This document shows positions 447 through 26,222 of a DNA stretch of 64,000 bases, in pieces. Position 1 is the first letter of the stretch. Each line of letters starts with the position of its first letter. The position numbers and the translations under genes were made by a program. Below the pieces are notes generated by a model. It searched no databases. It was not told where the DNA came from and saw only the letters and a program-made list of their open reading frames with translations. Source of the stretch: Prolixibacteraceae bacterium (lineage in GTDB: Bacteria; Bacteroidota; Bacteroidia; Bacteroidales; Prolixibacteraceae); contig OY829943.1 in NCBI GenBank assembly GCA_963692465.1, positions 417,935 to 481,934 of the forward strand, written 5' to 3'.

Positions 447-490
447 TGGATTTCAACAAAACTAAAAAAACGCACTTACACAATTACAAA

Positions 491-1537: not shown

Positions 1538-1617
1538 CGATTTCAATAAAGTACGTCTTTTTACAAAAGTCCATTATTTCCATAAAAAAGCATATAATTC
1601 AACAATAAATTTTTCCA

Positions 1618-2832: not shown

Positions 2833-2855
2833 TACACAACTTTATCAAATACATC

Positions 2856-3881: not shown

Positions 3882-4314
3882 TATTCCTGAAATCATTAAT
3901 GGTGGAATATTCTCTGATAATAGGGGTGATATTGCATACGTAAATGGCTTTAACTTCGAAGGAGTAAAACGTTTCTATATAATAGAACATCCTGATAGTT
4001 CTGTTATCAGAGCATGGCAATATCACAGGATTGAGAAAAAATGGTTCTACGTGGTACAAGGTTCTTTTTGTATAGCGTGGGTTAAAGTTGATAATTGGGA
4101 AAATCCATCTCCTAATTTAGCTGTAGAATTCAAAATCTTAAATGCCTCTGAAAGTGAAATCATTTCCATTCCTGCTGGTTATGCAAATGGATTAAAAGCA
4201 TTAGAGCCTAATTCTAAAATCATAGTTTTTTCGGATATGGATGTTGAAACATCCATTAAGGAAAAAATTCGATTTGATAAAAATATGTGGTTTAACTGGG
4301 AAAATATTAAATAA
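3865..4314 (+). CDS. Small cupin-fold protein, WxcM/FdtA-like (putative nucleotide-sugar isomerase/epimerase)
   Basis: 149 aa. It overlaps the fnlA stop by 17 nt and abuts the next start. It has the pattern DNRGDI...VKRFYII...IRAWQYH...WFYVVQGSF...ISIPAGYANG, typical of the small sugar-cupin family. Confidence 0.6.
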   Translation: MKTPNNIPEIINGGIFSDNRGDIAYVNGFNFEGVKRFYIIEHPDSSVIRAWQYHRIEKKWFYVVQGSFCIAWVKVDNWENPSPNLAVEFKILNASESEIISIPAGYANGLKALEPNSKIIVFSDMDVETSIKEKIRFDKNMWFNWENIK

Positions 4315-5429: not shown

Positions 5430-5439
5430 ATAAACAATT

Positions 5440-8881: not shown

Positions 8882-9142
8882 TAGTCGTACCCGCAATGTT
8901 TATTCATGAAAATTCAGAGAGGGACAAAATTATGAATATATCCGAATAACAACAACTCTGTAGCAAAGAATTTATAGATAAGAAGCTCCTTTTACTAATT
9001 AAATCTATCGGTTCGTGGGATTAATCTGATACTGAGTAAACTTATATGGCATTAAATTTCATAAGAGAATTTAACACGCAGGATTGTAAAATTGGAATGA
9101 TCTTTGCCATGTAAATATTAGACAAAAAAGATATATATTAAG

Positions 9143-9946
9143 ATGAAATTAGACAAAAAAATTATTCGCACATTATTCTTTTTGCTTTTACTTTTTTTAA
9201 TTCAAGTTAAGGGATCTTCTGCTGTCTCCGATACCATAAGAGTACTCTTTATTGGGAACAGTTATATATACGTTAATGATTTACCCTCGTTATTAAAGGA
9301 AGTTGCATCATCCGATGGAAAAGTTATTATCTCCGAACAAGACACTCCGGGTGGGAGTACTCTTGAAGGACACTGGAAATCAGAAATTCCTCAAAAGCTA
9401 ATAAAAGAAGGAGGTTGGAACTACATGATTTTGCAAGAACATAGTCAACGTCCCTCAATGCCAATTGAAAGCGTGAATCAATTAGTTTTCCCATTTGTTC
9501 ACAATCTGGACAGTCTATTTAAAGCATTTAATCCTACGGGAAAAACAATATTTTACATGACATGGGGTAGGAAAAATGGAGATTCCTCAAGATGTAAAGA
9601 ATTGCCACTAGTGTGTACTTATCAAGGCATGGACGACCTCACTCGCGAACGTTATCTCATGATGTCCGAACAAAACAAAGCATTAATTTCGCCAGTGGGT
9701 GTTGTTTGGCGACATTTAAGAGAAACTAATCCCGAAATTGAACTCTACATGAGTGATGAAAGCCATCCTTCAATAAATGGTTCATATGCAGGAGCATTGT
9801 GCTTTTATACGGTTATAACGCAAAAAGACCCCACTCTTATTTCATTCAACTCGACAATTGACCCTACTATGGCTAATATCATTAAAATGGCAGTTAAAAA
9901 AGTTGTTTATGAGCATCTAGATCAATGGAATATTGGACGATATTAG
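9143..9946 (+). CDS. Secreted SGNH/GDSL-like hydrolase (DUF4886-like), copy 1
   Basis: It has a signal peptide (LFFLLLLFLIQVKGSSA), block I VLFIGNSY (Ser nucleophile context), block V SDESHPS (D-x-x-H) and MTWGRKNGDS. It is a paralog of 11371..12414. Confidence 0.65.
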   Translation: MKLDKKIIRTLFFLLLLFLIQVKGSSAVSDTIRVLFIGNSYIYVNDLPSLLKEVASSDGKVIISEQDTPGGSTLEGHWKSEIPQKLIKEGGWNYMILQEHSQRPSMPIESVNQLVFPFVHNLDSLFKAFNPTGKTIFYMTWGRKNGDSSRCKELPLVCTYQGMDDLTRERYLMMSEQNKALISPVGVVWRHLRETNPEIELYMSDESHPSINGSYAGALCFYTVITQKDPTLISFNSTIDPTMANIIKMAVKKVVYEHLDQWNIGRY

Positions 9947-9987
9947 GTATATGAGTAAAATTCTCTAAAGTTAAAATCATCATAATT

Positions 9988-11151
9988 TTAACTTTTCTGC
10001 TTAACCTTTTGTCCAGGTTCCATTTGCAAGTCAGCAATGTCCTTTTTTAAAATACTCTTCAAACAACGATAGACTGTTTTTGATTTTGAAAAAACAAAAG
10101 GCAATGGGTCTATTATAATGTAGAATAATGATGTTTTAACTTTTCCTTCTATGTTATTTCTCTCTTTTATCTTTTTAAAGCTACATTTTAAAAAGGACAA
10201 ACTGTCAACGTAACAATTAAATTTATACTTTGGCTCAGTAAAAGGAACATTGACAATAGATAAATACAATAACTGAGGAAAATTTACTCCAACAGACAGT
10301 GAACCTAACAACGAGGCCCAAAAACGAGGATTAATTTCAATAACTTTTATCTCTCCATTTTCTTCATCATAACGAAGATCAATATGAGCGACCCCATTCC
10401 AATTTAGCTTATGCATTAATTCACTTACCACCTTTAAAGTTTCCTGATCAAAGAGAAACTTTATAGTAGAAGACGGCATAAATTCGGATTTTTTCGTTAT
10501 TCCTTGTTGAATAGTATAAGCTAAAATTTTCCCGTCCTTACAAAGAACACTACAGTCAATATCAAACCCTTTAATATATTGCTGTGCGATATATCTTTTG
10601 TTAATTATCCCCTCTGACGCAATAAACTCAAGCAAATTCATTTTAGTATTAAAAAACATTATTCCTTGTCCATTGCTACCCTGAGTTGGTTTAATAAGTA
10701 CTGGAAAAGAAATATTAGAATTAGCAATATTCTTATCCACTGGGATAGTATACGGATGAGGTAAATTATTTTGTTTACTGAATTTGGCGAATAATAATTT
10801 ATCAGAGGCAATATAAAAAGAGTCAATAATAGGAAGAGACGTAAATATCTTTAATTGGTCTAACTTTTCTTTATGTTTATAAACGAACAGGGTTCCTTTT
10901 TCCTGCAATGGGAAAAGGATGATTCTTCCATCTCCTCTTTCCCTAGAAATCGCTATAATGTGATTCAATAAAAATCCTTCATTTTCGACAAAGCAGAAAT
11001 TTTTACAATATCTAGAAAATCGAACATTTGGAAATTTGACATTTGAAAAAAGATATATTTCTATTCCCTCTGTTTTTGATAAACCCGTAAGTACGCTTAA
11101 AGCAAACCCACTTTCACCATCTGGAATAATAATTATATCGTTACTTTTCAT
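9988..11151 (-). CDS. ATP-grasp domain enzyme (COG3919-like), copy 2
   Basis: 387 aa. It has the same conserved blocks as copy 1 (FPVLIKPTQGSNGQGI, DIDCSVLCKDGKILAYTIQ, IKVIEINPRFWASLLGSLSVGVNFP). Confidence 0.75.
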   Translation of the reverse strand: MKSNDIIIIPDGESGFALSVLTGLSKTEGIEIYLFSNVKFPNVRFSRYCKNFCFVENEGFLLNHIIAISRERGDGRIILFPLQEKGTLFVYKHKEKLDQLKIFTSLPIIDSFYIASDKLLFAKFSKQNNLPHPYTIPVDKNIANSNISFPVLIKPTQGSNGQGIMFFNTKMNLLEFIASEGIINKRYIAQQYIKGFDIDCSVLCKDGKILAYTIQQGITKKSEFMPSSTIKFLFDQETLKVVSELMHKLNWNGVAHIDLRYDEENGEIKVIEINPRFWASLLGSLSVGVNFPQLLYLSIVNVPFTEPKYKFNCYVDSLSFLKCSFKKIKERNNIEGKVKTSLFYIIIDPLPFVFSKSKTVYRCLKSILKKDIADLQMEPGQKVKQKS

Positions 11152-11370
11152 TTCTAATAAATTTAATCTGTTTTTACCTTTAAATATTCAATTTCAAAGG
11201 GAAGGTAGGTTAAAAAGGGGGGAGCTATATCTGAAATTCAAGCAACTGTATGAATCTATTTAATAAACAAAAGGAATCCCTCACTTAGTGTATAAAGCTT
11301 TTTCTTAAAAAAAACAATTTTCCTTATTTTCGATTGTTGAAATTTGACTGTACGAATGTAATTAAAGAAG

Positions 11371-12414
11371 ATGAAAAATTTATTCCTTGTATTTGGTGCA
11401 CTATTCTGTTTCTGCTGTTGCACAGACTATCTATCAGGACAGGAGTTCAACAACCCAAGAGTTTCCCAAGACACAATAAGGGTATTGTTTATTGGAAATA
11501 GCTATACGTATACGAATGATCTTCCTCTATTATTAAAAAAAATTGCATCATCTGATGGAAAAACTATTATAACAGAACAAGATACCCCAGGAGGATGCAC
11601 CTTAGAAGGTCACTGGAATTCAGGAGTACCACAAAAGTTGATAAAAAAAGGCAATTGGGATTATATGGTTTTACAAGAACATAGTCAACTTCCTTCTGAA
11701 CCATTGAATGGATTTAATAACAAAGTATTACCTTTTGTAGAAAAGCTTAACAGTCTTTTTAAAAAACAAAATCAAAAAGGGAAGACTATTTTATATATGA
11801 CATGGGGAAGAAAAAACGGAGATTCTGATCGCTGCGGCAAATGCCCAGACGTCTGTTCATATGAAGGAATGGACAGCCTAACTCGTGCTCGTTATTTAAT
11901 ATTAGGAGATAAAATCGAATCATATATTTCACCTGTTGGCGCCATATGGAGATACATTCGAAACAAACATCCAGAAATCGAACTTTATAGCAGTGACTGT
12001 AGTCATCCTTCAATAAATGGATCTTTTGCCGGTGCATTAAGTTTTTATACTATAATTACACAAAAGAATCCTTCTAAAATAGTCTATAACACTTCAATTT
12101 CACCTGCTATTACATCAATGATAAAAGAGGCAGTTGAGAAAATTGCATACGACAGCTTGTATTACTGGAATGTTGGAATAACTGCCTTTTCTTATAAAGA
12201 AAGAGCAAACAATCTGGTCTCCTTTCGTAATCTTTCACGTAATTACGATTCGCTACTTTGGAATTTTGGTGATGGACAAAATTCAACAGAAAAAAATCCA
12301 TCGCACCAGTATCCAAAGAAAGAAGTATACAGAGTCACTCTCTACATAACGAAGAATAACAAAACCAGCTGTTTCTCATCAGATATTTCTACTATTCTTC
12401 GTCGATTAAGATAA
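11371..12414 (+). CDS. Secreted SGNH/GDSL-like hydrolase with C-terminal PKD-like domain, copy 2
   Basis: It has a signal peptide, VLFIGNSY, SDCSHPS and MTWGRKNGDS, as in copy 1. It also has about 80 extra C-terminal residues, WNFGDGQNSTEKNPSHQYPKKEVYRVTLYI (PKD-type motif). Confidence 0.65.
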   Translation: MKNLFLVFGALFCFCCCTDYLSGQEFNNPRVSQDTIRVLFIGNSYTYTNDLPLLLKKIASSDGKTIITEQDTPGGCTLEGHWNSGVPQKLIKKGNWDYMVLQEHSQLPSEPLNGFNNKVLPFVEKLNSLFKKQNQKGKTILYMTWGRKNGDSDRCGKCPDVCSYEGMDSLTRARYLILGDKIESYISPVGAIWRYIRNKHPEIELYSSDCSHPSINGSFAGALSFYTIITQKNPSKIVYNTSISPAITSMIKEAVEKIAYDSLYYWNVGITAFSYKERANNLVSFRNLSRNYDSLLWNFGDGQNSTEKNPSHQYPKKEVYRVTLYITKNNKTSCFSSDISTILRRLR

Positions 12415-12419
12415 CCCTT

Positions 12420-13205
12420 ATGCCAATTGAGATGGAAAATAAGCTGACGAAACGGGATATAATATCAAGAGAATTTCAGATAAAGAAATTCAATGTAAAA
12501 CACATGGTCCCGACGGTCACTCTGACAATAAACGTTGAAGCTGATAATTTGATTCAACGTAAAAAGGATATCAACGGTAATGCTAATTCACCGCACCTGA
12601 CAGTTACTCATATCATTCTGAAAGCGGTTGCTGAGGTCATTGTTAACTATCCGTTGTTATACAGCTTCTTTGATAGGCACAAGATCGTCCCCAATGCCGA
12701 GTTAATTTTGAATATTCCCGTTGCCATAGAAAATCATGTCGAATATGTCTCCATTCATAATGCCGAATCAAAATCATTGGAGGATATTGCAAGTGAATGC
12801 TCGGCTGAGATAGAAAAAATCAATAGGCACGAAGGGGAATTCATGAAATTGTTAGAAAAGATGGATAGGATGTCGGTATTACAAAAAATAGGATTTTACA
12901 TCTTTGAGCTAAAAGGTGCAGTTCCCTTCTTACGAAAATACTACGGTAATTTCCCTGTTTCAAACATCGGTTCTTTTAAGGTCAACAGTGGAACTCTGGC
13001 ATTGTCACAACCGATGGTTTCATCTCTTTGTATTGGCCGCATTACGTCTGTCCTACAAAAGGAGAATGGGAACTTGATTGACAAACTTATCTTGCCATTG
13101 AGTGTTTCATTTGATCATCGGGCCCTTGACGGGGCTTATGCCGGGGCTTTTCTGAATGAATTAAAAGAACATTTGGAAAAACCGGTATTGTCTGAAATTG
13201 AATGA
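12420..13205 (+). CDS. Stand-alone 2-oxoacid dehydrogenase E2-type (CAT-fold) acyltransferase catalytic domain
   Basis: 261 aa. It has the catalytic motif SFDHRALDGAYAGAFLNELKEHLEKP (DHR-x-x-DG) at the C-terminus. There is no lipoyl or subunit-binding domain in the ORF. It starts 5 nt after the stop of 11371..12414. Confidence 0.75.
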   Translation: MPIEMENKLTKRDIISREFQIKKFNVKHMVPTVTLTINVEADNLIQRKKDINGNANSPHLTVTHIILKAVAEVIVNYPLLYSFFDRHKIVPNAELILNIPVAIENHVEYVSIHNAESKSLEDIASECSAEIEKINRHEGEFMKLLEKMDRMSVLQKIGFYIFELKGAVPFLRKYYGNFPVSNIGSFKVNSGTLALSQPMVSSLCIGRITSVLQKENGNLIDKLILPLSVSFDHRALDGAYAGAFLNELKEHLEKPVLSEIE

Positions 13206-13232
13206 GTAAGTGAGTTTTCCGGCAAAATCGTT

Positions 13233-13262
13233 ACAAATTACCAATATGAGTGTATTGGATTT
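13233..13262 (+). repeat. Copy of the last ~30 nt of the ATPase CDS 16604..17803
   Basis: ACAAATTACCAATATGAGTGTATTGGATTT here versus ACAAATTACCAATATGGTGTATAGGATTT at 17766..17793. Confidence 0.7.
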
Positions 13263-13265
13263 GTG

Positions 13266-13289
13266 AAAGCCTATTCGTAGGCTTTTTTT
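13266..13289 (+). terminator. Rho-independent terminator after the glycan tailoring operon
   Basis: Stem AAAGCCT / AGGCTTT with a 6-nt loop, followed by a T-run. Confidence 0.7.
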
Positions 13290-13301
13290 GTTCCTCTATG
13301 T

Positions 13302-13334
13302 TGTCTGATAATTATTGACATGGATAAAATTTCA
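13302..13334 (+). repeat. 33-nt core repeat, copy 1 (TGTCTGATAATTATTGACATGGATAAAATTTCA)
   Basis: An identical 33-mer occurs at 16284..16316, and a copy with 2 substitutions at 18069..18101. All three are in the same orientation. Confidence 0.85.
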
Positions 13335-13341
13335 AGTTGCC

Positions 13342-13662
13342 ATGAAAAACAACAAAGTAATTGACAGATTAAATCAAATCGTTTCTTCTGAACCATCCAA
13401 ATGGCTTGATGATGAAAAAAGAAGAAAAGAGAATCGCGATTGGTTGAATAATTCAACTAAAATCGCCATACGAATACTACGGGCTATAAGAGCTCAAAAA
13501 GAGACGAGAAATATGTCACAAAAAATGCTCGCTGACATAATGGGGGTTAGTCAACAATATATTAGCAAAATAGTAAAAGGGCAAGAGAACCTTTCTCTGG
13601 AAACAATCTGCAAGCTTGAAAAAGCTCTTGGAATTGTTCTTGTTGAGATTCCGAAACTTTAG
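13342..13662 (+). CDS. XRE-family helix-turn-helix transcriptional regulator
   Basis: ORF 13315..13662; the ATG at 13342 (MKNNKVIDRL) is preferred. It has the HTH_3 motif MSQKMLADIMGVSQQYISKIVKGQENLSLETICKLEKALG. Confidence 0.8.
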   Translation: MKNNKVIDRLNQIVSSEPSKWLDDEKRRKENRDWLNNSTKIAIRILRAIRAQKETRNMSQKMLADIMGVSQQYISKIVKGQENLSLETICKLEKALGIVLVEIPKL

Positions 13663-13670
13663 AAGAAACC

Positions 13671-13713
13671 TGTCTCAATGGAATTATCTGTATCGCATGC
13701 TGAAATTGAGACA
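13671..13713 (+). promoter_or_regulatory. 9-bp inverted repeat between the XRE gene and the ATPase gene (operator or weak terminator)
   Basis: TGTCTCAAT (13671-13679) and ATTGAGACA (13705-13713) form a perfect inverted repeat with a 25-nt spacer. Confidence 0.35.
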
Positions 13714-13773
13714 ATGGAATCAGTTACAATTATTTTTGTAATTTTGTCTAAAAGCAAACAATAATATTACACC

Positions 13774-14826
13774 ATGATTAATCGGGTAAATATCAAAAAC
13801 TTTCAGATATTCGATAATTTTCAGATATCAAATTTCACTCCTGTAAATGTTATCATTGGCCGCAATGATTCAGGAAAAACCAGTTTGCTAAAAATACTTT
13901 ATACAGTTACGAAGTCGGTTGAAGAATTTGGTCTAAAGCAACAACATTCTCCCGAATCTTTTAAAAAAATTATCAGTAAAAAAATCCAAAATACGTTTAA
14001 TACACATAAAACCGGGATTGGAAGTCTTGTAAAACGCGGGACAGAAAAGTTATTTTTTGACCTCACTTTTGATAATAACCAGAGCATTCATTTTTCATTT
14101 ACTGACCGAGCAACGGAGAACATTGTTGACTGTTCTGCATCAATCAATAACGTTGATAATTGTTTCAATTCCCTTTTCATCCCGGCAAAGGAGGTTCTTT
14201 CTATTTTCAAAGCAATAGAAACTTCTCGTGGCAGTTTATTTGTCCCTGATTTTGATGATACTTACCTTGACCTTGTTAATGCTCTAAAAATTCCAACGCA
14301 ACAAGGGCGGGTCGAAACAAATCTTCTAAATGTGAATAATATCCTTTCCCATCTTTTTGAAGGAGAGATTCAACAGGTTAACGAGGGATTCGATATCGAT
14401 TTTGTATTTAAAAAGGGAAAGTACGACTTCGCGATGCCGGTAACCGCTGAAGGAATTAAAAAAATTGGTGTTATTACAACACTTATCAGAAATCACCGAT
14501 TAAATAAAAATACAATCCTTTTCATGGATGAACCGGATACTAATTTACATCCGGATGCAATACGTCAGCTATGCGAAATTATTTATGATATCAGTAAAGC
14601 TGGAATTCAGATTTTCCTTTCTTCCCACAATTATTTCCTTATAAAGCAACTCTCTATCATTGCCCGCCGTGAAAAACAATCAATGAATTGTCTCTCTCTG
14701 TGTAATAATGAAGAGCAAAAAACTCAATATTTAATCGCTGATCTTAAAGACGGTATGCCGTCTAATTCAATTATTGACGAAGCATTGAAAATGTTAGATG
14801 ATGAAACTGACATTGATTTAAAATAA
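13774..14826 (+). CDS. ABC/SMC-type P-loop ATPase (AAA_15/AAA_21-like)
   Basis: 350 aa. Walker A VIIGRNDSGKTSLL, signature-like TAEGIKK, Walker B ILFMDEPDTNLHP, H-loop-like FLSSHN. No fused nuclease domain is recognisable. Confidence 0.75.
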   Translation: MINRVNIKNFQIFDNFQISNFTPVNVIIGRNDSGKTSLLKILYTVTKSVEEFGLKQQHSPESFKKIISKKIQNTFNTHKTGIGSLVKRGTEKLFFDLTFDNNQSIHFSFTDRATENIVDCSASINNVDNCFNSLFIPAKEVLSIFKAIETSRGSLFVPDFDDTYLDLVNALKIPTQQGRVETNLLNVNNILSHLFEGEIQQVNEGFDIDFVFKKGKYDFAMPVTAEGIKKIGVITTLIRNHRLNKNTILFMDEPDTNLHPDAIRQLCEIIYDISKAGIQIFLSSHNYFLIKQLSIIARREKQSMNCLSLCNNEEQKTQYLIADLKDGMPSNSIIDEALKMLDDETDIDLK

Positions 14827-14833
14827 TTATCTC

Positions 14834-15199
14834 ATGTCTATTAGCGAAAGTGGTATAACTCTTAATTTTCCGGATAACAATTATTTTCGATTTCAAAATT
14901 GCAAGGCATATCAAAAACTTTCTAATATTCATTTCAATTTTAAAGATAAAAAACCAACAAAAAACTGATCTAAACTTCATTAAAGATCAATATAAAGCGA
15001 TGTTCAGACCTTATGAAAAGCTTTTCAGCATTAAAAGTACAGTAATAAGTCATGATAAGGCTATTGAAAGATTTCAATGGGTAGAATAATATCTACATCC
15101 GATGGAATGGTCTGGATAAAGGGGCATGTAATCGGTAATTACAAATGGTTCTTCATCACTTCAGGCGATGTTTTAGCCGAAAGTTCCAAAAATAAATAG
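14834..15199 (+). pseudogene. Possible frameshifted partner gene of the ATPase (three consecutive reading segments)
   Basis: Segment 1 is 14834-14968 (MSISESGITLNFPDNNYFRFQNCKAYQKL...). Segment 2 continues in another frame from the A-rich run at about 14948-14965 to the stop at 15087-15089 (...DLNFIKDQYKAMFRPYEKLFSIKSTVISHDKAIERFQWVE). Segment 3 is in the third frame, to the stop at 15197-15199 (...DGMVWIKGHVIGNYKWFFITSGDVLAESS). Confidence 0.35.
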
Positions 15200-15298
15200 T
15201 TGGGTATTCGGAAATTAAATTTTCAACAATAACTGTAAAAATTAAACATTGATTTAATTCCATTGTTATTTTTGTATAGAAAAAAAATAAACTGAGCT

Positions 15299-15775
15299 AT
15301 GCCTACATCTTTTACTTCAACAGATTCTCAAGTTTGTATGTGGTTTAACAAATTGATTTCGTCTCTCGTAGGTGATCAAATTGAAATAGAATCAGGGATT
15401 GCTAATAAAGAAAAAAAAGATTTTTACGGGGCGGCTATGAATAGCGATTATTATAGTTTAAGTAGTAATGTTCGCTTACAATCAACACAATTTTTTATTT
15501 CAAGCATGCTAAAAGATTACATTGAAGAAATAAAAAAAAGGAATGCTCAACCGCTTTCTCTTTCATTGAAATTATCTAATTCGAAGATTCTTGCCTGGGC
15601 TATTACAAAAGATGATGACGAAGAAACAGAGAATAAGTTGTATTTGGCTGCTGCTGCAATAAATGCAAAATATTATAAAGAGGGATTTTATATTAGTACA
15701 ACGATTGTTGAAGAGTCGGATAATTACAATGCTCCCGCTCAATATCAACTTCTATTTAGCAATGGCCAACTTTAA
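15299..15775 (+). CDS. Hypothetical protein (158 aa), first gene of an overlapping pair
   Basis: A clean ORF with no motif I recognise. Its stop overlaps the next start by 14 nt. Confidence 0.6.
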   Translation: MPTSFTSTDSQVCMWFNKLISSLVGDQIEIESGIANKEKKDFYGAAMNSDYYSLSSNVRLQSTQFFISSMLKDYIEEIKKRNAQPLSLSLKLSNSKILAWAITKDDDEETENKLYLAAAAINAKYYKEGFYISTTIVEESDNYNAPAQYQLLFSNGQL

Positions 15776-16250
15776 TGAACATTTAAATCAAGCACAAAGC
15801 AATCTTTCTTTTTTACGGGAGATTAATAGTTTATCTAACCATTATTGGGATTGGCAGGTTACTACATGTTTTTATGTTGCGGTTCACCTCATTAATGCTT
15901 ATATCGCGGATAAATCTAACATGCATTATCGTAGTCACGAGGATGTAGCCCAGGCAATAAATCCGTATAATCAATTGTCTCCATTAAAAGTGACTGATGA
16001 AGTATACGTATCATATTGTAAACTTCAAAATTTATCTCGTCGGGCCCGTTATTTAATAAATGACAACATGAAAAATCGAGAAACAAATGGGCACTTTACT
16101 TCTGATAAACACTTTATTAAAGCATTAAAAAGTTTAGATAGAATATTAGATTTCTTCATCAAAAAATACCCTTCAGAATCTTTTGACACATTAGATTTAC
16201 ACTGCATGGAAGGAAAGAAAACATCTTTTGCCTATTTCCAGATTTTATAA
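15762..16250 (+). CDS. Hypothetical alpha-helical protein (162 aa), second gene of the overlapping pair
   Basis: ORF 15663..16250. The ATG at 15762 (MANFNEHLNQAQSNL) is preferred because upstream of it the frame runs inside the previous CDS. It contains one R-x4-H spacing (RETNGH). An internally deleted ghost copy lies at 17938..18020. Confidence 0.6.
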   Translation: MANFNEHLNQAQSNLSFLREINSLSNHYWDWQVTTCFYVAVHLINAYIADKSNMHYRSHEDVAQAINPYNQLSPLKVTDEVYVSYCKLQNLSRRARYLINDNMKNRETNGHFTSDKHFIKALKSLDRILDFFIKKYPSESFDTLDLHCMEGKKTSFAYFQIL

Positions 16251-16363
16251 AATGTAAGTGTTAATCTTTTTGTTGTTTAGAAATGTCTGATAATTATTGA
16301 CATGGATAAAATTTCAGAAAAAAATGTGAACTCCGATATTGTTGGCACTGAAAATGGCACTGT
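16235..16363 (+). repeat. ~130-nt direct repeat, copy 1 (3' end of CDS 15762..16250 plus downstream sequence; contains core copy 2 at 16284-16316)
   Basis: It aligns by eye, with a few substitutions and 1-nt indels, to 18020..18163. Confidence 0.85.
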
Positions 16364-16603
16364 TGCGTTCTTCGTTAACGGAGGAGTAATGATATCTTGA
16401 TATTAAATTTGTTGAGAAGGGAACAAGAAACGGAAAGAAATTTTTTATTGAAAGTACCAATGTAAGCAGGTTCTTCAGACAATATCACATGAACAAATAC
16501 AGCAAAAAAATATCAATAACGCTGCATGCAAACAGCATTTTTAAACTAATATTGCTGAACACAAACAGCAAATAAGTATATTTGCCACATTAATACAACA
16601 AAT

Positions 16604-17803
16604 ATGGAAACTCTATTTGCTAAACAAGATCGCTTGCTAAAACTGACTTCTACAAAAATAGTTCGTGAACTGATGAAACAGATTCATTGGGAAACTCAAC
16701 TGATCGCAATCCGAGGAGCACGAGGTGTAGGAAAAACAACACTTATGTTGCAATATATCAAACTAAACTATCCGACTTATAGTAGGGAAGTTTTGTATTG
16801 TACGATGGATTCTGTATTCTTCTCAAACCACAGTTTATTGGATTTAGCAGATACTTTTTATAAAAATGGTGGCAAGAGATTATTTTTAGATGAAGTTCAT
16901 AAATACCCTACATGGAGCAAGGAGATAAAGGAAATCTATGATATGTACCCTGATCTGCAAATCGTATTCAGCGCATCATCACTTCTGCAAATTCTAAACG
17001 GGGATGCTGATTTGTCCCGTCGATGTATCCCATACACGATGCAGGGACTTTCTTTTCGGGAATTCTTCCTGTTCTATAAGAATATTGAACTACCGATATA
17101 TTCGTTAAAAGATATTTTATCTTTCCCTGAGAAACTATGTGCTGAAGTAAACGATAAATGTCATCCATTGCCTTTCTTCAAAGAATATCTCCAATATGGA
17201 TATTATCCTTTTTATTTGAGAAATCAATTGGACTATTACACCAGCATAGAGCAGATAACGAACTTTATTATAGAAACAGAATTGACATTGCTGTGTAAGG
17301 TTGATGTGGCAAATGTACGTAAGCTGAAAGCATTGTTAGGAGTATTGGCAACTTCGGTGCCTTTCGAAGTGGATATTTCTAAATTGGCAACAACAATAGG
17401 AGTACACCGGAATACAGTGATTTCTTATTTGTATGATATGGATAAAGCTGAATTGATAAATATGTTATTTTCAGATCTTTTGTCGGTAAAGAAAATGCAG
17501 AAGCCGGATAAGATTTATTTAGATAACCCCAATTTGCTTTATGCGTTGGCTTCACAGCCTGTTAAAAAAGGAACAGTCCGAGAAACATTTGTTGTCAACC
17601 AATTAGCATATTTGCATCAGATAGAGTATGGAAAAACAGCCGGTGATTTTAAGGTGGATGGTCAATATTTTTTTGAAGTAGGCGGTGAAAACAAGACATA
17701 TAAACAGATTGCAGATGTGCCTGATTCATATATTCTGGCTGACAATATAGAAACTCCTTATCATCACAAATTACCAATATGGTGTATAGGATTTCTTTAT
17801 TAA
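16604..17803 (+). CDS. AAA+ ATPase with DUF4143-type C-terminal domain (COG1373 family)
   Basis: 399 aa. Walker A IRGARGVGKTTLM, Walker B RLFLDEVHKYPTW, and a C-terminal winged-helix/DUF4143-like region. Confidence 0.8.
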   Translation: METLFAKQDRLLKLTSTKIVRELMKQIHWETQLIAIRGARGVGKTTLMLQYIKLNYPTYSREVLYCTMDSVFFSNHSLLDLADTFYKNGGKRLFLDEVHKYPTWSKEIKEIYDMYPDLQIVFSASSLLQILNGDADLSRRCIPYTMQGLSFREFFLFYKNIELPIYSLKDILSFPEKLCAEVNDKCHPLPFFKEYLQYGYYPFYLRNQLDYYTSIEQITNFIIETELTLLCKVDVANVRKLKALLGVLATSVPFEVDISKLATTIGVHRNTVISYLYDMDKAELINMLFSDLLSVKKMQKPDKIYLDNPNLLYALASQPVKKGTVRETFVVNQLAYLHQIEYGKTAGDFKVDGQYFFEVGGENKTYKQIADVPDSYILADNIETPYHHKLPIWCIGFLY

Positions 17804-17823
17804 TATCCTATCAAGCGTTTTAT

Positions 17824-17879
17824 TTAAAAGAACGTTTGGAAAAACCGGCATTATCTGGAATTGAATAAGTAAGTTTTCC
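17824..17879 (+). pseudogene. Ghost of the 3' end of an E2-type acyltransferase gene
   Basis: It still reads LKERLEKPALSGIE-stop, versus LKEHLEKPVLSEIE-stop at the end of CDS 12420..13205 (nt 13161-13220). The flanking GTAAGT..GTTTTCC is also shared. Confidence 0.75.
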
Positions 17880-17937
17880 ATAAGCATTCAGAGACGTACT
17901 CCCCATTCACAGATAGATCGAATAATTAATGTAGCCA

Positions 17938-18020
17938 CATTATTGGGATTGGCAGGTTACTACATGTTTTTATGTTGCAATTCACCTCATTAATGCTTAT
18001 ATCGCGGATAAATCTAACAT
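17938..18020 (+). pseudogene. Ghost (5'-truncated, internally deleted) of a second copy of CDS 15762..16250
   Basis: It matches 15839..15922 with 2 substitutions. It then joins directly to the sequence homologous to 16235 onward, so about 0.3 kb of the gene is missing. Confidence 0.8.
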
Positions 18021-18163
18021 TTCCAGATTTCATGAAATATAAGTGCTAATTTTTTTGTTGTTTAGAAATGTCTGATAATTACTGACGTGGATAAAATTTC
18101 AAAAAAAATGTGAACTCTGATATTGTTGGCACTGTAAACGACACTGTAAATGGCACTGTAAAT
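18020..18163 (+). repeat. ~130-nt direct repeat, copy 2 (contains core copy 3 at 18069-18101), ending in three tandem 12-mers
   Basis: It aligns to 16235..16363. The tail is GGCACTGTAAAC GACACTGTAAAT GGCACTGTAAAT (18128-18163), where copy 1 has only GGCACTGAAAAT GGCACTGT. Confidence 0.85.
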
Positions 18164-19446
18164 TATTTAATAGCATACAATGGAACGTTTGTCATCCATG
18201 ATTCTTCCTTGTAATCGGACAACGAGGTCCGGATGGCTTTTGAAGGTTTATACTTTTCACAAAACAACCTGAAACTTTTGGCGTTCAGGTTTTCACCCGA
18301 TTTTACCTCAATGGGGATAACTTCCCCTTGGTCCTGAATGACGAAATCGACTTCCGCCGTACTCCGATCATTTGTCCAATATCCAATATAGCGTTCACTG
18401 TCCAGACGCAATTGCTGCATCACGTACTGCTCTGTGAGTGCCCCTTTAAACTCGGTAAAGATTCCATCTCCCTCAATGATCGTCCGAACGTTAAGCCCAG
18501 CCATGGCACCAAGCAAGCCTACATCGTGCAGAAATAATTTAAATACGGAAACATTCTGGTAAGCGGCAAGCGGGATTCCTGGTTTTGATACCCGATAGCA
18601 TTTCAGCAATAAGCCACAATCCGTCAGCCACTGGATAGCTAACTCAAAGTCTTTGGATCGAGCTCCCTCTCTGATTACTCCATATACAAATTTTTTATTC
18701 TCTTTAGCTAATTGCGACGGGACACTTTGCCAAACCATCCGGATGCGGGGAACGGTTTCATTAGGTGCATGCTTGGAAAAATCACCTTCATAGGAGTTAA
18801 GTATCCTGTTCTGAATGCGGCGAACCAGTTGCCAATCGCGAGTTTGAACAAAAGCATCCACCACTTCGGGCATTCCCCCCACATAGAAATAATAGCGGAG
18901 ATATTCTTTAAGTTTCTCCGTAAAAATAGAAAGGACGCTCCAGTTCTTAGCCGTTAGTGCTTCAACCAATGCCTTTTCATTCTGAGATAACAGGAATTCG
19001 GAGAACGAAAGCGGACGCAAATCCAAAAAATCAACCTTCCCGACAGGAAAAGAAACTTGACTATGCAACCCCATTCCAAGCAAGGAACCGGCTGCAACCA
19101 CATGGTATTGGGGTGCTTTCTCACAGAAATATTTCAGAGAGGTAACACCACGTTCTGCTGACTGGATTTCGTCTAAAATAATCAATGTATCTTCGGCTGT
19201 TATTGTGGTTTGAGCATGTATCTGAAGCACTGTTATTATCCGTTCAATATCGAAATCGTTAGTGAAAATAGTTTGCAATGCAGGGGTTTCCTCAAAATTC
19301 ACATAGATGAATTTAGCATACGAAGTACGACCAAACTCCTGCAAGAGCCATGTCTTTCCTACCTGTCGCGCACCTCTTACAATCAGTGGCTTACGGAATT
19401 TATCTTCCTTCCACTTCTTTAAACTGACAATTGATTCCCGATACAT
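18163..19446 (-). CDS. AAA+ ATPase with DUF4143-type C-terminal domain (COG1373 family)
   Basis: 427 aa. Walker A VRGARQVGKTWLL, Walker B LIILDEIQ, and a C-terminal PD-(D/E)xK-like/DUF4143 region (EVDFVI...IPIEVKSG). Confidence 0.8.
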   Translation of the reverse strand: MYRESIVSLKKWKEDKFRKPLIVRGARQVGKTWLLQEFGRTSYAKFIYVNFEETPALQTIFTNDFDIERIITVLQIHAQTTITAEDTLIILDEIQSAERGVTSLKYFCEKAPQYHVVAAGSLLGMGLHSQVSFPVGKVDFLDLRPLSFSEFLLSQNEKALVEALTAKNWSVLSIFTEKLKEYLRYYFYVGGMPEVVDAFVQTRDWQLVRRIQNRILNSYEGDFSKHAPNETVPRIRMVWQSVPSQLAKENKKFVYGVIREGARSKDFELAIQWLTDCGLLLKCYRVSKPGIPLAAYQNVSVFKLFLHDVGLLGAMAGLNVRTIIEGDGIFTEFKGALTEQYVMQQLRLDSERYIGYWTNDRSTAEVDFVIQDQGEVIPIEVKSGENLNAKSFRLFCEKYKPSKAIRTSLSDYKEESWMTNVPLYAIK

Positions 19447-19479
19447 CTATTTATTCCCATCTAAAATTGATATGAATAT

Positions 19480-19535
19480 ACACTTTTATCAGGATAAAAA
19501 TGTAAACAGACCACACTTTTATCAAGATAAAAATG
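19480..19535 (-). promoter_or_regulatory. Two 23-nt direct repeats, each with an internal palindrome, just upstream of ATPase gene 18163..19446
   Basis: ACACTTTTATCAGGATAAAAATG (19480-19502) and ACACTTTTATCAAGATAAAAATG (19513-19535), period 33 nt. Each contains TTTTATC..GATAAAA. Confidence 0.45.
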
Positions 19536-19842
19536 ATATACCTCCCAATGTAATCCAAATCGGAACTCCTTATCGCTACTAATTACCAGTATACGTATTG
19601 AATTTATATATTTGGATATCAAATTAAATCTGGTTATGAAGAATAACAAAAGCTTGCCCCTTCTGAATTGTTTTTAATCTGAATTTATGCAACAGGATCT
19701 GTTAACACGACGTATAGTATGGATACAGTTCGTTGCTCAAGGTTGTCAATTCGTAAATTGTCTTTACTCTTTAATACAATCCAAAGAAAAAGGGGAAGAT
19801 TGAAATCTATTTGATGATTACCTTTAATGAAAAATTCATCAG

Positions 19843-21027
19843 ATGCCTCTAATTCTAAATATTACAATATGCTTTGGATTGGCTGCAATGCTTGTCTTTT
19901 TCTGTATTCCTACAATTATTGGAGTAGCAAGGAAAAAAAAGCTCTATGATGTTCCAAACGCAAGAAAAGTAACGACTCAGGTGATTCCTACATTAGGAGG
20001 GGTTGCTATATTCCTGGGGTTCGTTATTGCAGTCACGGTCTCCCTATACAATTATACATTCCTTGAATTTCGTTATATACTAACGGCCTTAACCATCATG
20101 CTCTTTGTCGGTTTAAAAGATGACCTGATGGATATCTCGGCATCGAGTAAATTTATCGGTGAATTTGTTGCTGCTACGATGGTGTGCGTTCTGGGTAACA
20201 TTCGCTTCACTGATTTACATGGTTTATTAGGAATTCATGCATTAAATCCGTTCTTCAGTATTGTATTATCGCTGCTTTTTATTGCGTTTATTGCCAATGC
20301 AATTAACCTGATTGACGGAATTGACGGACTTGCCTCAGGAATTGTTATAGTGGCTTGTGCAACACTCGGCACTTGGTTCTATCTCTCCGGAAATAATACT
20401 TATGCTCTCATGAGCTTTGCGTTAGTGGGTGCATTGTGCTCATTTTTTCTCTACAATGTCTTCGGGAAAAGCAACAAGATCTTTATGGGCGATACGGGGT
20501 CTTTAATTCTGGGGCTCATTCTGTCGGTACTCATTATTCGTTTTAACGAATTAAATATAGTGGGTGGAAAGCCTTACTCGGTTCCTGCTTCTCTTGCCAT
20601 TTCCCTGGGTATTGTTATTCTTCCGGTCATTGATACACTTCGGGTTATGATTCTAAGAATGATCCACGGAAAGTCTCCATTTAAAGCGGATCGAAATCAT
20701 ATTCATCACATGCTCCTTGATCTTAATTTTACGCATCTGCAGGCTACGTTAATATTAGTCGGGGCAAATCTGCTCTTTACAATTGCCTCTTTTGCTCTTC
20801 GGGACCTTGGAACAAATATACTTCTGTTCATTAATGTTGCCGCCGGATTTTCATTGGCCTTTATGCCTTCTTTGATTTTGAAACGGCGGGCCGAAAAATC
20901 AATCGGTAACGAAATGAGACTAACCGATGAAGAAATGAAAGAAATTACGAAACTAATAAATGACTCTTCCTCATTGGTTATCACAAAGAAACATCATCAA
21001 CCGACCAGTATAGGTGGCACCAACTAA
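19843..21027 (+). CDS. wecA: Polyisoprenyl-phosphate N-acetylhexosamine-1-phosphate transferase (WecA/WbpL, MraY-like GT4 family)
   Basis: 394 aa, polytopic. Motifs VGLKDDL, NAINLIDGIDGLASG, MGDTGSLILG, DRNHIHH. Confidence 0.85.
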   Translation: MPLILNITICFGLAAMLVFFCIPTIIGVARKKKLYDVPNARKVTTQVIPTLGGVAIFLGFVIAVTVSLYNYTFLEFRYILTALTIMLFVGLKDDLMDISASSKFIGEFVAATMVCVLGNIRFTDLHGLLGIHALNPFFSIVLSLLFIAFIANAINLIDGIDGLASGIVIVACATLGTWFYLSGNNTYALMSFALVGALCSFFLYNVFGKSNKIFMGDTGSLILGLILSVLIIRFNELNIVGGKPYSVPASLAISLGIVILPVIDTLRVMILRMIHGKSPFKADRNHIHHMLLDLNFTHLQATLILVGANLLFTIASFALRDLGTNILLFINVAAGFSLAFMPSLILKRRAEKSIGNEMRLTDEEMKEITKLINDSSSLVITKKHHQPTSIGGTN

Positions 21028-21052
21028 GACATTAAGGTTGTTGAAAATGCGA

Positions 21053-21844
21053 TTACGCACTCAATATCCGTTGTTCCTTCATCCTTTTTGAAAATTCGAC
21101 AATTTGTTCCCGGGAAATTGAGCAACAAAATTCTTCTCCATTCTTGGTCAAAACACAGACTTTTTTGGAGATGTTTATCTTTGACAAATAGGTGGAATTA
21201 ATAATACAAGAACGCTTAGTTCGGATAAACGTATTCTTATCAAGTTTTGGGTAGATTCGCCCCAAATTGAGGGTGACCATCTCTTTTTGCTCGTTTCCTA
21301 AAAAGAAAATACTATAATTCCCTTCTGCTTTAATATAAATGATATCCTGCGGTTCAATGAGTACAAATCCATTCAAATTATGAAACGCAATCTTATTTAA
21401 TATCTGGGGAGAACAAAATCCATCGTTTTTTGAGGTTGATGCTTTCGTCTTGTTCTTTTCGTCTGCCCGTTTCTGCAATAGAACAGAAATCCGGTCCAAT
21501 AATGAGATTAAAGTCGTTTTGTCCGTTATCGGATCTGGGTCAAACTCTCTAAATCCCAGGAAATACTGGACATAGGGATTTTCATTAATAAACTCGACGG
21601 TTTTTTCGGAAGAAAAGCCTTCCTTGCACTTTACAATGACCGCTCCAATAACCAATTTTATTTCCTGATCGGGAAGTAAAAGATCGGGATAAAAAAGACT
21701 GTTTTTTTTATACAGATATAAAAGTCTTTTCCATGGAATTCGTTGTGCTAATAAAATCCAACGGTTATTTTCATCCAGCTTTTTCCCAAAATGGACGATG
21801 GAACTTTTAAAAACCAAGGGGTTTATCTGACTTTGTGTATACAT
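21053..21844 (-). CDS. LytTR DNA-binding protein fused to an IS5/IS4-type transposase N-terminal (DUF772-like) region
   Basis: Residues about 25-120 (NNRWILLAQRIPWKRL...VIGAVIVKCKEGFSSEKTVEFINENPYVQYFLGFREFDPDPITDKTTLISLLDRI) follow the DUF772 transposase N-terminus pattern. Residues about 155-255 (FVLIEPQDIIYIKAEGNYSIFFL...FIRTKRSCIINSTYLSKI) form a LytTR domain. There is no DDE domain. Confidence 0.7.
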   Translation of the reverse strand: MYTQSQINPLVFKSSIVHFGKKLDENNRWILLAQRIPWKRLLYLYKKNSLFYPDLLLPDQEIKLVIGAVIVKCKEGFSSEKTVEFINENPYVQYFLGFREFDPDPITDKTTLISLLDRISVLLQKRADEKNKTKASTSKNDGFCSPQILNKIAFHNLNGFVLIEPQDIIYIKAEGNYSIFFLGNEQKEMVTLNLGRIYPKLDKNTFIRTKRSCIINSTYLSKINISKKVCVLTKNGEEFCCSISREQIVEFSKRMKEQRILSA

Positions 21845-21879
21845 AGCGACGTTTATATTTAATTACCGAAAAAGATGAT

Positions 21880-22200
21880 CTATTTGTATGATTTTCTCGC
21901 AGCTCTAATGATTGATTTATACTGAAAGACTCTGCTATATAAAGGCAATGATTCAACCCGACGTAAGGTCTTTTGATATTGCGTTCTTAACGATTGTTCA
22001 TAAAAGAACAGATTATGCCATTTCTCTTGCTCCTTAATTTTTTCAAGTAGAATGGTCTTTTGATTTTCAAGATTCTTAATCTTTGCCTCAAGCACAATGA
22101 TCCGCTGGTGAGTTTCACTGTTCTCTAATTTTTCTATCCTTTCAAAAATTTCCTGATAAGTCTGCATATCAAGAATTACCCTGTTGCTAGATTTTTCCAT
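21880..22200 (-). CDS. Hypothetical coiled-coil protein (106 aa)
   Basis: Heptad-like sequence IEKLENSETHQRIIVLEAKIKNLENQKTILLEKIKEQEK. It is on the same strand as, and 35 nt upstream of, the LytTR gene. Confidence 0.5.
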   Translation of the reverse strand: MEKSSNRVILDMQTYQEIFERIEKLENSETHQRIIVLEAKIKNLENQKTILLEKIKEQEKWHNLFFYEQSLRTQYQKTLRRVESLPLYSRVFQYKSIIRAARKSYK

Positions 22201-22636
22201 TTCTTGTTATATTTCCTCATAAGAAAAAAGATACTTCTTAATAAAGTTAGTGAAAAATAACAAGTTAGAGGTAAAAAAACAGAAAGGCATTTAATATCGC
22301 ACAAATTATTACCGTATGACAGAATGTATACTTTCCCTTTATGAATAGCCTCATCCAGTGGGTGAATTACCTATTCTGCTGACTGAATCGTAAGCGACAC
22401 ATTGTGTGAAATGACGAATATATTGTATGAAATACCCCAAATTAGTGATAAAGCAAAATTAGATAAATGGGTGAAATGACGGGGGTAATGGATAAGCGTA
22501 TCCATTCAGTAAAGCAAATATCGCAATGTGACTTGCTAACCATGAGCACAATAAGACCTATTTACTTTCTCCAAAATTTACTTTAACTTAGATGGGATAT
22601 TGCATATTCATCGATAAAAACCAAAAAAAATTAAAG

Positions 22637-23239
22637 ATGAGAAATGTAATCCTTACTGTAAGTCTGCTCCTGGGAGGCATTTTTGCCTTCGCACAGGGAG
22701 GTGAACCACAACGTCCGGATAGGATGGCTAATCATACGACCCACAATTCGAGAACGAACATTGCGTCGTACAAAACATTTGACTTTGAACTGATCAACAC
22801 CGACAATCCGGCAATGGAAAAACAACTGACTGACATACTACAAAACAAACTGGAGCAGAAAGGACTGAAACGGGATCGGAAAAATCCAGGATTATTGGTA
22901 TTTATCAGTTTCTACTCGGGCGATGACAAACAATATGTGCCACCGACTTCAAAGGTAAAAACAAGATACGGAAACGAATATAATATATGGACGGGAGGTA
23001 ACAATAGATCGCAGATATCTTCGAAACTATCGGATGGATATCCAAAAACAACTTACCGATACTCCTACAAAGTGAGAATGTTGGATGCCCAAAAAACAAA
23101 AGCTAATTCGCCTGCCCCGCCTATTGTCTGGCAATCGGAACAAGAAGGAACTTCGGGTAAAAAAATTGACTTGCTCCAGATGGCTCCGTCGATTTATGAC
23201 CAAATGATCAGGGGCTTGCGTTACAATGCCAATGAATAG
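22637..23239 (+). CDS. Secreted protein, possibly DUF4136-like
   Basis: ORF 22592..23239; the Met at 22637 gives a signal peptide (MRNVILTVSLLLGGIFAFAQ). The family call is weak. Confidence 0.45.
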   Translation: MRNVILTVSLLLGGIFAFAQGGEPQRPDRMANHTTHNSRTNIASYKTFDFELINTDNPAMEKQLTDILQNKLEQKGLKRDRKNPGLLVFISFYSGDDKQYVPPTSKVKTRYGNEYNIWTGGNNRSQISSKLSDGYPKTTYRYSYKVRMLDAQKTKANSPAPPIVWQSEQEGTSGKKIDLLQMAPSIYDQMIRGLRYNANE

Positions 23240-23248
23240 CAACGCCAA

Positions 23249-24475: not shown

Positions 24476-24491
24476 CTTCGGGGTCTTTTAG

Positions 24492-26222
<1,731 letters not shown>

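Follow-up and report, generated by a model that had tools for sequence, protein, structure and literature searches.

An apparently eroding, strain-variable islet of defence-type genes beside a surface-glycan locus in a Prolixibacteraceae bacterium

The interval and its flanks

We have analysed a 64,000-nucleotide stretch of DNA (the window) from a Prolixibacteraceae bacterium (GenBank assembly GCA_963692465.1, contig OY829943.1, positions 417,935 to 481,934 of the forward strand) and, in particular, the 6637-nt interval 13206-19842 that lies between surface-glycan genes and a wecA-like gene. Domain scans agreed with an earlier, sequence-only reading of this DNA in placing glycan machinery to the left of the interval and a wecA-like transferase, in the same orientation, to the right. 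The XRE regulator, ABC/SMC-type ATPase, decayed open reading frame (ORF), pair of small genes and two AAA_14/DUF4143 ATPases (the last inverted) that it had named in between were all located as it had described (Table 1). Our preferred reading, to which we would give a probability of roughly 0.65, is that the interval is an eroding, strain-variable, recombination-shaped islet of defence- or toxin–antitoxin (TA)-type accessory genes beside a surface-glycan operon. It draws on the family assignments of the genes, on a block of cargo that is present in some strains and absent from others, and on a series of gene ghosts.

Non-coding DNA makes up 27.5% of the islet (1827/6637 nt). It had been described as unusually long gaps of about 350 nt each, filled with gene ghosts; the ghosts are there, beyond chance expectation, but the gaps measure 136, 111, 472, 353, 359 and 396 nt. 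The 472-nt gap, which follows the HEC-02A-type ATPase gene, contains short ORFs. The absence of an integrase, transposase or tRNA from the islet was borne out: domain and family scans found no integrase or transposase domain in any islet ORF, a tRNA search found none at 13-20 kb (the sole tRNA of the window is at 28491), and an Rfam scan of 12-23 kb matched no family. A sigma-70 promoter scan returned a count equal to the shuffle expectation and was not used, Bacteroidota promoters lying outside its model.

Table 1. Features of the islet and its flanks, in window coordinates
Feature	Position	Strand	Evidence and remarks
Left flank, glycan machinery	431-13205		Domain scans: 3 GT1 glycosyltransferases, 2 ATP-grasp, 2 DUF4886
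FnlA/FnlB/FnlC-like trio in left flank			Domain scans: Polysacc_synt_2, Polysacc_synt_C/epimerase, UDP-GlcNAc 2-epimerase
2-oxoacid_dh-type acyltransferase, last left-flank gene	12420-13205	+	Domain scans
Segment A, acyltransferase 3' end + 6 nt	13161-13211	+	Source of ghost 17824-17879
Segment B, ATPase1-type 3'-end remnant	13226-13262	+	32/36 identical to 17760-17794; 15 nt past acyltransferase stop
Terminator-like hairpin + T-run	13265-13296	+	9-bp stem then TTTGTTCCTC; consensus match only
33-nt direct repeat, copy 1 (TGTCTGATAATTATTGACATGGATAAAATTTCA)	13302-13334	+	Left boundary of cargo block
Cargo block, 2949 bp	13335-16283	+	In window and L006; absent from L099/L100
XRE-family HTH regulator, 106 aa	13342-13662 (alternative start 13315)	+	HTH_3 5.4e-15; L006 annotation uses 13342
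Intact ABC/SMC-type ATPase, HEC-02A family	13774-14826	+	PADLOC PDLC04214, E 1e-101
HEC-02B pseudogene	14834-15089	+	tblastn with 167-aa partners from L095 and L096
158-aa protein, upstream module member	15299-15775	+	Helical N-terminal half, alpha/beta C-terminal half; AF2 pLDDT 94.2
162-aa HEPN-like protein, downstream module member	15762-16250	+	AF2 pLDDT 90.7
33-nt direct repeat, copy 2	16284-16316	+	100% identical to copy 1; right boundary of cargo block
Decayed 5' remnant of small winged-helix (HTH_24/MarR-like) gene	16302-16400	+	32-codon ORF, also annotated in L006
ATPase1, AAA_14 with weak DUF4143	16604-17803	+	AAA_14 2e-26; DUF4143 3.8e-05 (under Pfam cut-off); PDC-S01 6e-27
Acyltransferase 3'-end ghost	17824-17879	+	17824-17874 90% identical to 13161-13211, E 6.5e-13; in L099 too
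Internal 162-aa-gene ghost	17921-18020	+	Matches 15825-15922: 92% over 100 nt, 98% over 83 nt, E 1e-34
Ghost: 162-aa 3' end, spacer, repeat copy 3, winged-helix start	18019-18147	+	91% identical to 16234-16363, E 1.8e-45
33-nt direct repeat, copy 3	18069-18101	+	2 mismatches; within ghost 18019-18147
ATPase2, AAA_14 + DUF4143, inverted	18163-19446	-	DUF4143 1e-36; AAA_14 1.5e-26; PDC-S01 8.6e-184, full length
Second ATPase1-type 3'-end remnant	19559-19627	+	Aligns to 17746-17814, score 26 vs shuffle maximum 18; ~215 nt 5' of wecA
WecA/MraY-family GT4, right flank, outside islet	19843-21027	+	PF00953 1.1e-36; TIGR02380 3e-45 (under that model's cut-off)

A HEC-02 ATPase beside a decayed partner gene

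The intact ATPase aligns with the PADLOC HEC-02A model over essentially its full length (residues 1-348 against model positions 1-336/338). In Pfam it matches AAA_21 (2.5e-22), AAA_15 (4e-18) and SMC_N (5.6e-08), and its translation contains Walker A (GRNDSGKTS) and Walker B (ILFMDEPD) motifs. HEC-02 (Hma-embedded candidate 02) is composed of an ABC ATPase and a NERD/PD-(D/E)xK nuclease, and defence needs both genes (Payne et al., bioRxiv 10.1101/2024.01.29.577857). The window ATPase is 60-62% identical to its closest homologues, one in an uncultured Draconibacterium (L095) and the other in Puteibacter caeruleilacunae (L096), and in both a 167-aa gene that matches HEC-02B (2.8e-27) lies directly 3' of the ATPase gene. 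The L095 pair sits inside a type I restriction–modification (R-M) operon, between hsdS/GmrSD and hsdR. A JGI metagenome scan with HEC-02A gave no match.

In the window the next gene 3' of the ATPase gene is also homologous to HEC-02B, but it is dead, and the decayed ORF of the sequence-only reading thereby acquires an identity. By tblastn with the two 167-aa partners, 14834-14947 corresponds to partner residues 1-38 and 14922-15083, in another frame, to residues 113-166 (E values of 7e-19 and 1e-10 for the two matches); about 74 central codons have been deleted, and a frameshift and stop codons separate the remnants, the N-terminal one of which matches the HEC-02B profile at 4.7e-08. The deleted stretch included FYLIELKD, the putative E-x-K core of the nuclease. 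Since defence requires both genes and HEC-02B is a pseudogene, the HEC-02 system at this locus is most likely inactive. The end-to-end HEC-02A match and the canonical A+B pair in the nearest relatives thus place the ATPase in this family, whereas the locus departs from the described system in its broken nuclease gene, in not being embedded in another defence operon and in the XRE gene that precedes the ATPase gene, which is absent from the two closest homologues. For annotation pipelines this is a caution, as a PADLOC-type match to HEC-02A would at this locus announce a system that lacks a working copy of its essential partner.

Two further observations were made during these searches. The A/B labels of two other PADLOC models appear to be swapped: PDLC04146 (labelled HEC-02B, 344 positions) matches the ATPase at 9.4e-45, and PDLC04145 (labelled HEC-02A, 170 positions) weakly matches the nuclease partners. 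The L095 contig (ENA ERZ21878193) carries at 1-13056 a dense defence cluster in which an intact HEC-02 A+B pair and GmrSD lie between hsdM-hsdS and hsdR, followed by a YgjP-like gene and a Piwi-domain (prokaryotic Argonaute) gene.

A two-gene module with a HEPN-like protein

The pair of small genes that follows the pseudogene had been described as overlapping unknowns. They do overlap, by 14 nt and not by 113 nt: the start at 15663 that gave the longer overlap was dropped, and ATG 15762 fits the length of about 161 aa seen in the homologues of the 162-aa protein. The other half of the description did not stand, in that the two genes make up a conserved module, associated with phages and integrases, one product of which is HEPN-like. 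The 158-aa protein has homologues in 331 representative clusters and the 162-aa protein in 81, one UniRef entry among the latter bearing the name HEPN. The two genes adjoin and are co-oriented in 11/11 loci, six of them on IMG/VR contigs, and their contexts are otherwise unrelated. They lie among housekeeping genes in a TARA metagenome-assembled genome (MAG), directly after a tyrosine integrase gene in Wandonia haliotis and directly beside one on the IMG/VR contig L106, and the three IMG/VR contigs that were sampled carry major-head, portal, anti-repressor or integrase genes.

Searches of Pfam, NCBIfam, PADLOC and PHROGs with the two proteins gave no match, and searches of PDB sequences with profiles of the two families gave nothing significant. 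The AF2 models of both proteins are confident. That of the 162-aa protein has the four-helix up-down bundle of HEPN domains, and HEPN domains are its top three Foldseek matches in the PDB (probabilities 1.00, 0.99 and 0.84; TM 0.51-0.66), at E values of 0.14-0.8. The invariant residues of the family are R93, R94, R96 and H117, the arginines and H117 being about 21 residues apart; the R-ETNG-H of the window protein itself is not kept across the family. For the 158-aa protein the best fold match is a putative nucleotidyltransferase (2rff, E 0.027), with a chain of a HEPN-MNT complex at rank 35. Its conserved residues are W15, F16, W100, E111, N122, E138, D141 and P146; there is no GS motif, and the combination of nucleotidyltransferase fold with GS and DxD/E motifs that marks an MNT antitoxin is not found. 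The nucleotidyltransferase likeness of the model is suggestive only.

The module resembles the HEPN-MNT type II/VII TA systems (PDB 5yep, 7ae8 and 7bxo) in being a tightly coupled pair of genes for small proteins, in its downstream HEPN-like helical bundle and upstream protein with a weak nucleotidyltransferase-like fold match, and in being phage-borne and integrase-adjacent; it differs from them in lacking both the Rx4-6H and the GS...DxD motifs, in its weak Foldseek E values and in matching no family database. The strict adjacency and shared orientation of the pair in unrelated contexts are what is expected of a TA or abortive-infection system in general. We infer, in part from predicted structures, that it is a divergent HEPN-type module, TA- or abortive-infection-like, and we do not file it in the HEPN-MNT family. 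Widespread but unannotated, the module is found on phage contigs as well as on Bacteroidota chromosomes, and may reasonably be regarded as a candidate new system of this general kind.

Two AAA_14/DUF4143 ATPases

The two remaining intact islet genes both encode proteins that match the PDC-S01 models of PADLOC and have the AAA_14 + DUF4143 architecture of the PDC-S01/COG1373 group, with DUF4143 falling under the cut-off in ATPase1. They are only 24% identical to each other, and ATPase2 stands out in base composition, with a GC content of 43% that is like that of the chromosomal backbone (41%) and unlike that of its islet neighbours (32-35%). DUF4143 has been listed within the PD-(D/E)xK superfamily (PMC3424549). 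The two genes adjoin the degenerate HEC-02 and the HEPN-like pair and are not embedded in an R-M, BREX or DISARM operon. The islet is further set apart by three separate ATPase1-type 3' ends that mark its junctions, a trait not described for the family. The Logan contig L001 begins inside ATPase2 at 18522, where the window shows no repeat, and this hints at ATPase2 paralogues elsewhere in the genome.

A repeat-bounded block and its empty site

A 33-nt direct repeat occurs three times in the window, against an expectation of none by chance, and its two identical copies delimit the cargo block that holds the XRE gene, the HEC-02A gene, the HEC-02B pseudogene and the 158/162-aa pair. The comparative sample was small (three haplotypes and one related species) and includes the sequences of two Logan runs, L099 and L100, reached through a cluster mate of ATPase1 at least 90% identical to it. 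L099 corresponds at 1-643 to window 12693-13334 (92.7% identity) and at 611-2488 to window 16284-18163 (98.3%). The junction in L099/L100 consists of the left flank of window repeat copy 1, a single 33-nt repeat and the right flank of copy 2, so that the acyltransferase gene is joined to ATPase1 directly via one repeat. The 2949-bp block is a clean presence/absence polymorphism bounded by the 33-nt repeat.

A second difference between haplotypes was found next to ATPase2. The contig L002 is 99.0% identical to the window over 18163-25945 and diverges precisely at the ATPase2 stop codon, beyond which it has about 246 bp of a winged-helix gene that has been lost from the window; 85 codons of the C-terminal part of this gene are kept at the contig end (HTH_24 1.9e-09). 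The ATG and first codons of the winged-helix gene (MDKIS...) fall within the 33-nt repeat, and both window copies of the gene are truncated. The repeat includes a near-palindrome, TGTCtgATAATTATtGACA, which could be an operator for the XRE or the winged-helix protein. A tandem 12-nt repeat (GGCACTGTAAAT/C, peptide G-T-V-N) starts the small winged-helix gene (window 18130-18162, L002 1-30, L099 2440-2496); its copy number varies between haplotypes, and short-read contigs stop inside it.

In the related species (L089; PyrG 97% and YidC 94% identical), nucleotide identity to the window is about 85% from 22560 on and wecA, which occupies the same chromosomal neighbourhood, is 75% identical; no glycan genes and no ATPase genes lie upstream of this wecA, and the islet arrangement is missing. 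From this comparison it follows that the conserved backbone begins only at about 22.5 kb and that the islet lies within a larger, low-GC variable region. The terminator-like hairpin 3' of the acyltransferase gene, together with a wecA that has no upstream glycan genes in the related species, suggests that the glycan operon would close at 13265-13296 and that the islet does not interrupt an operon. The prediction that content would vary while flanks persist has thus been borne out: L099/L100 lack the block between a retained acyltransferase gene and a retained ATPase1, L002 carries the indel of about 246 bp beside retained ATPase2 and wecA, and L089 has no islet. There is no conservation of identical content across distant relatives, nor do all the islet ORFs belong to housekeeping families, either of which would have told against that prediction.

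Gene ghosts between the genes

The gaps contain fragments of the acyltransferase gene, the 162-aa gene, the repeat with the winged-helix start, and ATPase1 (Table 1). The blastn E values of the ghost pairs run from 1e-13 to 1e-45; tblastn aligns the internal ghost at 17921-18020 with the 162-aa protein at 85% identity over 34 aa, and none of 300 shuffles reached the score of either ATPase1-type 3'-end remnant. No ghost content rose above shuffles in 16364-16603 or 15090-15298.

The ghosts are collinear with their intact sources, in the order acyltransferase end, 162-aa gene, repeat with winged-helix start, ATPase position and ATPase 3' end, and the two copies of the acyltransferase end are spaced 4663 nt apart, the proposed duplicated unit running from about 13161 to about 17823. 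Because of this collinearity, the ghosts fit a history in which an old tandem duplication of about 4.7 kb would have been followed by deletions. Ghosts and sources differ by about 9-10%, compared with 1-2% between haplotypes, and such a divergence points either to an event of some age or to a second copy acquired from another, divergent lineage. L099 also retains the ghost block 3' of ATPase1, 98.3% identical to that of the window, whereas the ghost is only about 91% identical to its intact source; the duplication therefore predates the indel of the cargo block.

As the genome was assembled from a metagenome, the ghosts and duplications might be artefacts of strain mixtures collapsed or chimerically joined at repeats. 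Short-read contigs do have their ends precisely at the repeats (13331 for both L004 and L005; L007 covers 13305-15869 and L098 16287-17967). A 212-kb ENA contig (L006/L097), however, spans the whole islet at 99.98% identity, the Logan fragments L007, L098 and L001 carry the same sequence, every Logan fragment from the separate runs matches at 100%, and L099/L100, from two other runs, show the same ghost block 3' of ATPase1 at 98.3%. Since the same sequence is found in separately deposited assemblies, with one contig spanning the islet, the pseudogene and the repeats are not assembly errors, and we regard an artefactual origin of the ghosts and duplications as having next to no probability.

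Gain or loss of the cargo block

The empty site can be explained either by RecA-type deletion between the repeats or by a trans-mobilised, site-specific insertion that duplicates the 5' end of its target. The sequence-only reading had held that the islet is not a classical mobile element; this stands as regards the missing mobility gene, but a repeat-bounded block with an empty-site allele may also stem from a trans-mobilised insertion. On that alternative the 2.95-kb block would be either a mobile cassette that inserts site-specifically and has no integrase of its own or what is left of an integrative element, the 33-bp repeat would be its attachment core at the 5' end of the winged-helix gene, and at least two insertions would have taken place at paralogous sites, the older having decayed to the ghost 17921-18147. 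Perfect 33-bp direct repeats stand exactly at both ends of the block and match the empty-site allele, as in an integrative element, though no integrase, transposase or tRNA insertion accompanies them. The left repeat also fuses the winged-helix ATG and first five codons out of frame to the XRE gene, which favours insertion, as such a fusion is expected from duplication of a target 5' end. A second point in favour of insertion is that the 162-aa gene, spacer and repeat adjoin in the ghost just as they do in the intact copy, and the 158/162-aa pair lies directly beside a tyrosine integrase gene both in Wandonia and on L106. Yet no recombinase is encoded in or beside the block, the repeat was not found in a scan of JGI metagenome contigs, and 33 bp of identity permits a RecA-type deletion, which accounts just as well for the empty site. 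At other loci, moreover, HEC-02 homologues are not linked to the HEPN-like pair or to an XRE gene, so the block is composite. We therefore consider such a cassette unlikely, if worth keeping in mind. An imperfect inverted repeat (16/20; 13347-13366 and 16259-16278), set in from the left end of the block by 13 nt and from its right end by 5 nt, could be added in its favour; it is A/T-rich and may be due to chance.

The block shares with integron cassettes its promoter-proximal cargo, its lack of an integrase, its bounding repeats and its occupied and empty alleles. It differs in that there is no intI, in that the repeats are direct copies of a gene 5' end and in that the 33-nt repeat has no attC-like secondary structure: an attC-like or hairpin reading of the repeat was rejected, as it folds no better than shuffles (z = 0.61), and this too counts against a mobile cassette. 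A bolder proposal would make the repeat the attachment core of a new class of integrase-less defence cassettes, mobilised in trans, aimed at a small winged-helix gene (at its 5' end or its operator) next to genes for DUF4143 ATPases and having hit at least twice (one copy intact, one a ghost), with the 158/162-aa pair as a new divergent HEPN-type abortive-infection or TA system common to Bacteroidota chromosomes and phages. We hold this conjunction to be more doubtful still.

Interpretation of the islet

Defence islands and hotspots are clusters of unrelated defence genes at a fixed site, with variable content, frequent decay and atypical composition. The islet shows unrelated defence-type genes, content variation between close strains, decay and atypical base composition; it differs in being small, in that the sole experimentally validated system in it is broken, in its position at the edge of a glycan locus and not at a tRNA or integrase gene, and in being represented by three haplotypes. 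All the components fall into, or look like, classes already known or proposed (HEC-02, PDC-S01/COG1373, HEPN-type modules, defence islets), and the islet as a whole behaves like a small chromosomal defence hotspot, in keeping with the central inference of the sequence-only reading, and is not a new kind of system. The statement that the particular gene combination could not be assigned to a named system needs correcting, since most of the cargo is assigned: HEC-02A with a dead HEC-02B, and PDC-S01 as a candidate system.

Three layers can be told apart in the islet. The first is the 2.95-kb repeat-bounded cargo with its XRE gene, HEC-02A, dead HEC-02B and intact HEPN-like pair; the second, the two distantly related AAA_14/DUF4143 ATPase genes; and the third, ghosts that would have been left by the tandem duplication of about 4.7 kb and by large deletions in its second copy, in which the second ATPase copy would have been replaced by the inverted, compositionally different ATPase2. 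In our working model, the 33-bp promoter/5'-end repeat and the ends of paralogous genes would offer short stretches of shared sequence at which recombination adds or removes cargo, with no recombinase encoded in the islet. HEC-02 would no longer defend, the HEPN-like pair would act as a TA or abortive-infection module, and the DUF4143 ATPases would act as NTP-driven nucleases in defence. Going by their family relationships, the intact HEPN-like pair and the two ATPases may still act in defence or addiction.

Several points weigh against this reading. As to function, the genes of the islet are assigned at family level only: the E values of the HEPN matches are weak, the canonical Rx4-6H motif is missing throughout the 162-aa family, the nucleotidyltransferase resemblance of the 158-aa protein is marginal (TMq 0.37), and PDC-S01 in PADLOC is a guilt-by-embedding candidate only. 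As to history, the ghost divergence of about 10% fits import from another lineage as well as duplication in situ, and the 2.95-kb indel is compatible with either gain or loss. As to variability, there are only three haplotypes; L099/L100 stop short of wecA, so that fixed flanks are shown only from the acyltransferase gene to ATPase1, and none of the contigs with alternative content reaches from one outer flank to the other.

The cargo had also been described as regulatory or defence-type genes with no glycan role, and the HEC-02A, PDC-S01 and HEPN-like matches agree with this. The opposite view makes the islet genes a functional part of the glycan locus, as regulators or accessory factors, with the XRE and winged-helix proteins and the ATPases tuning capsule or wecA expression. 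It could appeal to the location of the islet, with glycan genes on one side, wecA on the other and most genes co-oriented, to the two DNA-binding proteins in the islet and to the LytTR-type regulators that flank wecA both in the window and in L089. However, the empty site in L099/L100 shows that the block can be dispensed with, and the winged-helix gene is decayed in both window copies. The ATPase and its partner are members of a defence family that has been validated and is embedded elsewhere in an R-M operon, and the HEPN-like pair turns up away from glycan genes, in phage genomes and next to housekeeping genes. Between the glycan operon and the islet there is also a terminator-like hairpin. 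A role in glycan regulation is, in our judgement, improbable.

On the preferred reading of an eroding defence-type islet, the locus is a base-level worked example of islet turnover next to a surface-glycan locus. It combines a HEC-02 system caught after loss of its nuclease, a bounded gain/loss allele of 3 kb and fossils of earlier arrangements, and its value lies in this clear fossil record of turnover, in the empty-site allele and in the uncharacterised, phage-borne two-gene module.

Neighbouring loci

A C-terminal fragment of an IS66-family transposase (24-383, + strand; DDE_Tnp_IS66 4e-20) lies just 5' of the first glycosyltransferase gene, and the left edge of the variable glycan region may lie here. 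Within the glycan locus, 7742-12414 is a tandem paralogous duplication in which an ATP-grasp gene (-) and a DUF4886 gene (+) occur twice, the ATP-grasp copies being about 50% and the DUF4886 copies 64% identical, and the second DUF4886 protein has an extra PKD domain.

To the right of wecA, a 263-aa protein (21053-21844, - strand) combines an N-terminal IS5-transposase domain (DUF772 2e-08; NF033578 5.5e-19) with a C-terminal LytTR domain, and its 106-aa partner (21880-22200, - strand) matches no family. Three such LytTR genes flank wecA in L089, and two of them are paired with a homologue of the 106-aa ORF (L089 8676-9853, 11449-12258 and 12380-13625). These proteins look like a transposase-derived regulator family tied to wecA.

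A scan of GTDB genome contigs with WecA returned only paralogues or orthologues of 40-52% identity, with no synteny. Two 78%-identical WecA homologues (P0001 and P0002) were considered as an orthologous site and rejected, being paralogues in another glycan locus with an upstream NusG-like gene. This 78%-identical paralogue (L086-L088) stands in a second glycan-type locus with genes for a NusG/UpxY-like protein, a GFO_IDH_MocA oxidoreductase and an NTP_transferase. The sample that yielded the window strain also yielded one copy, and the organism therefore probably carries several wecA-linked polysaccharide loci.

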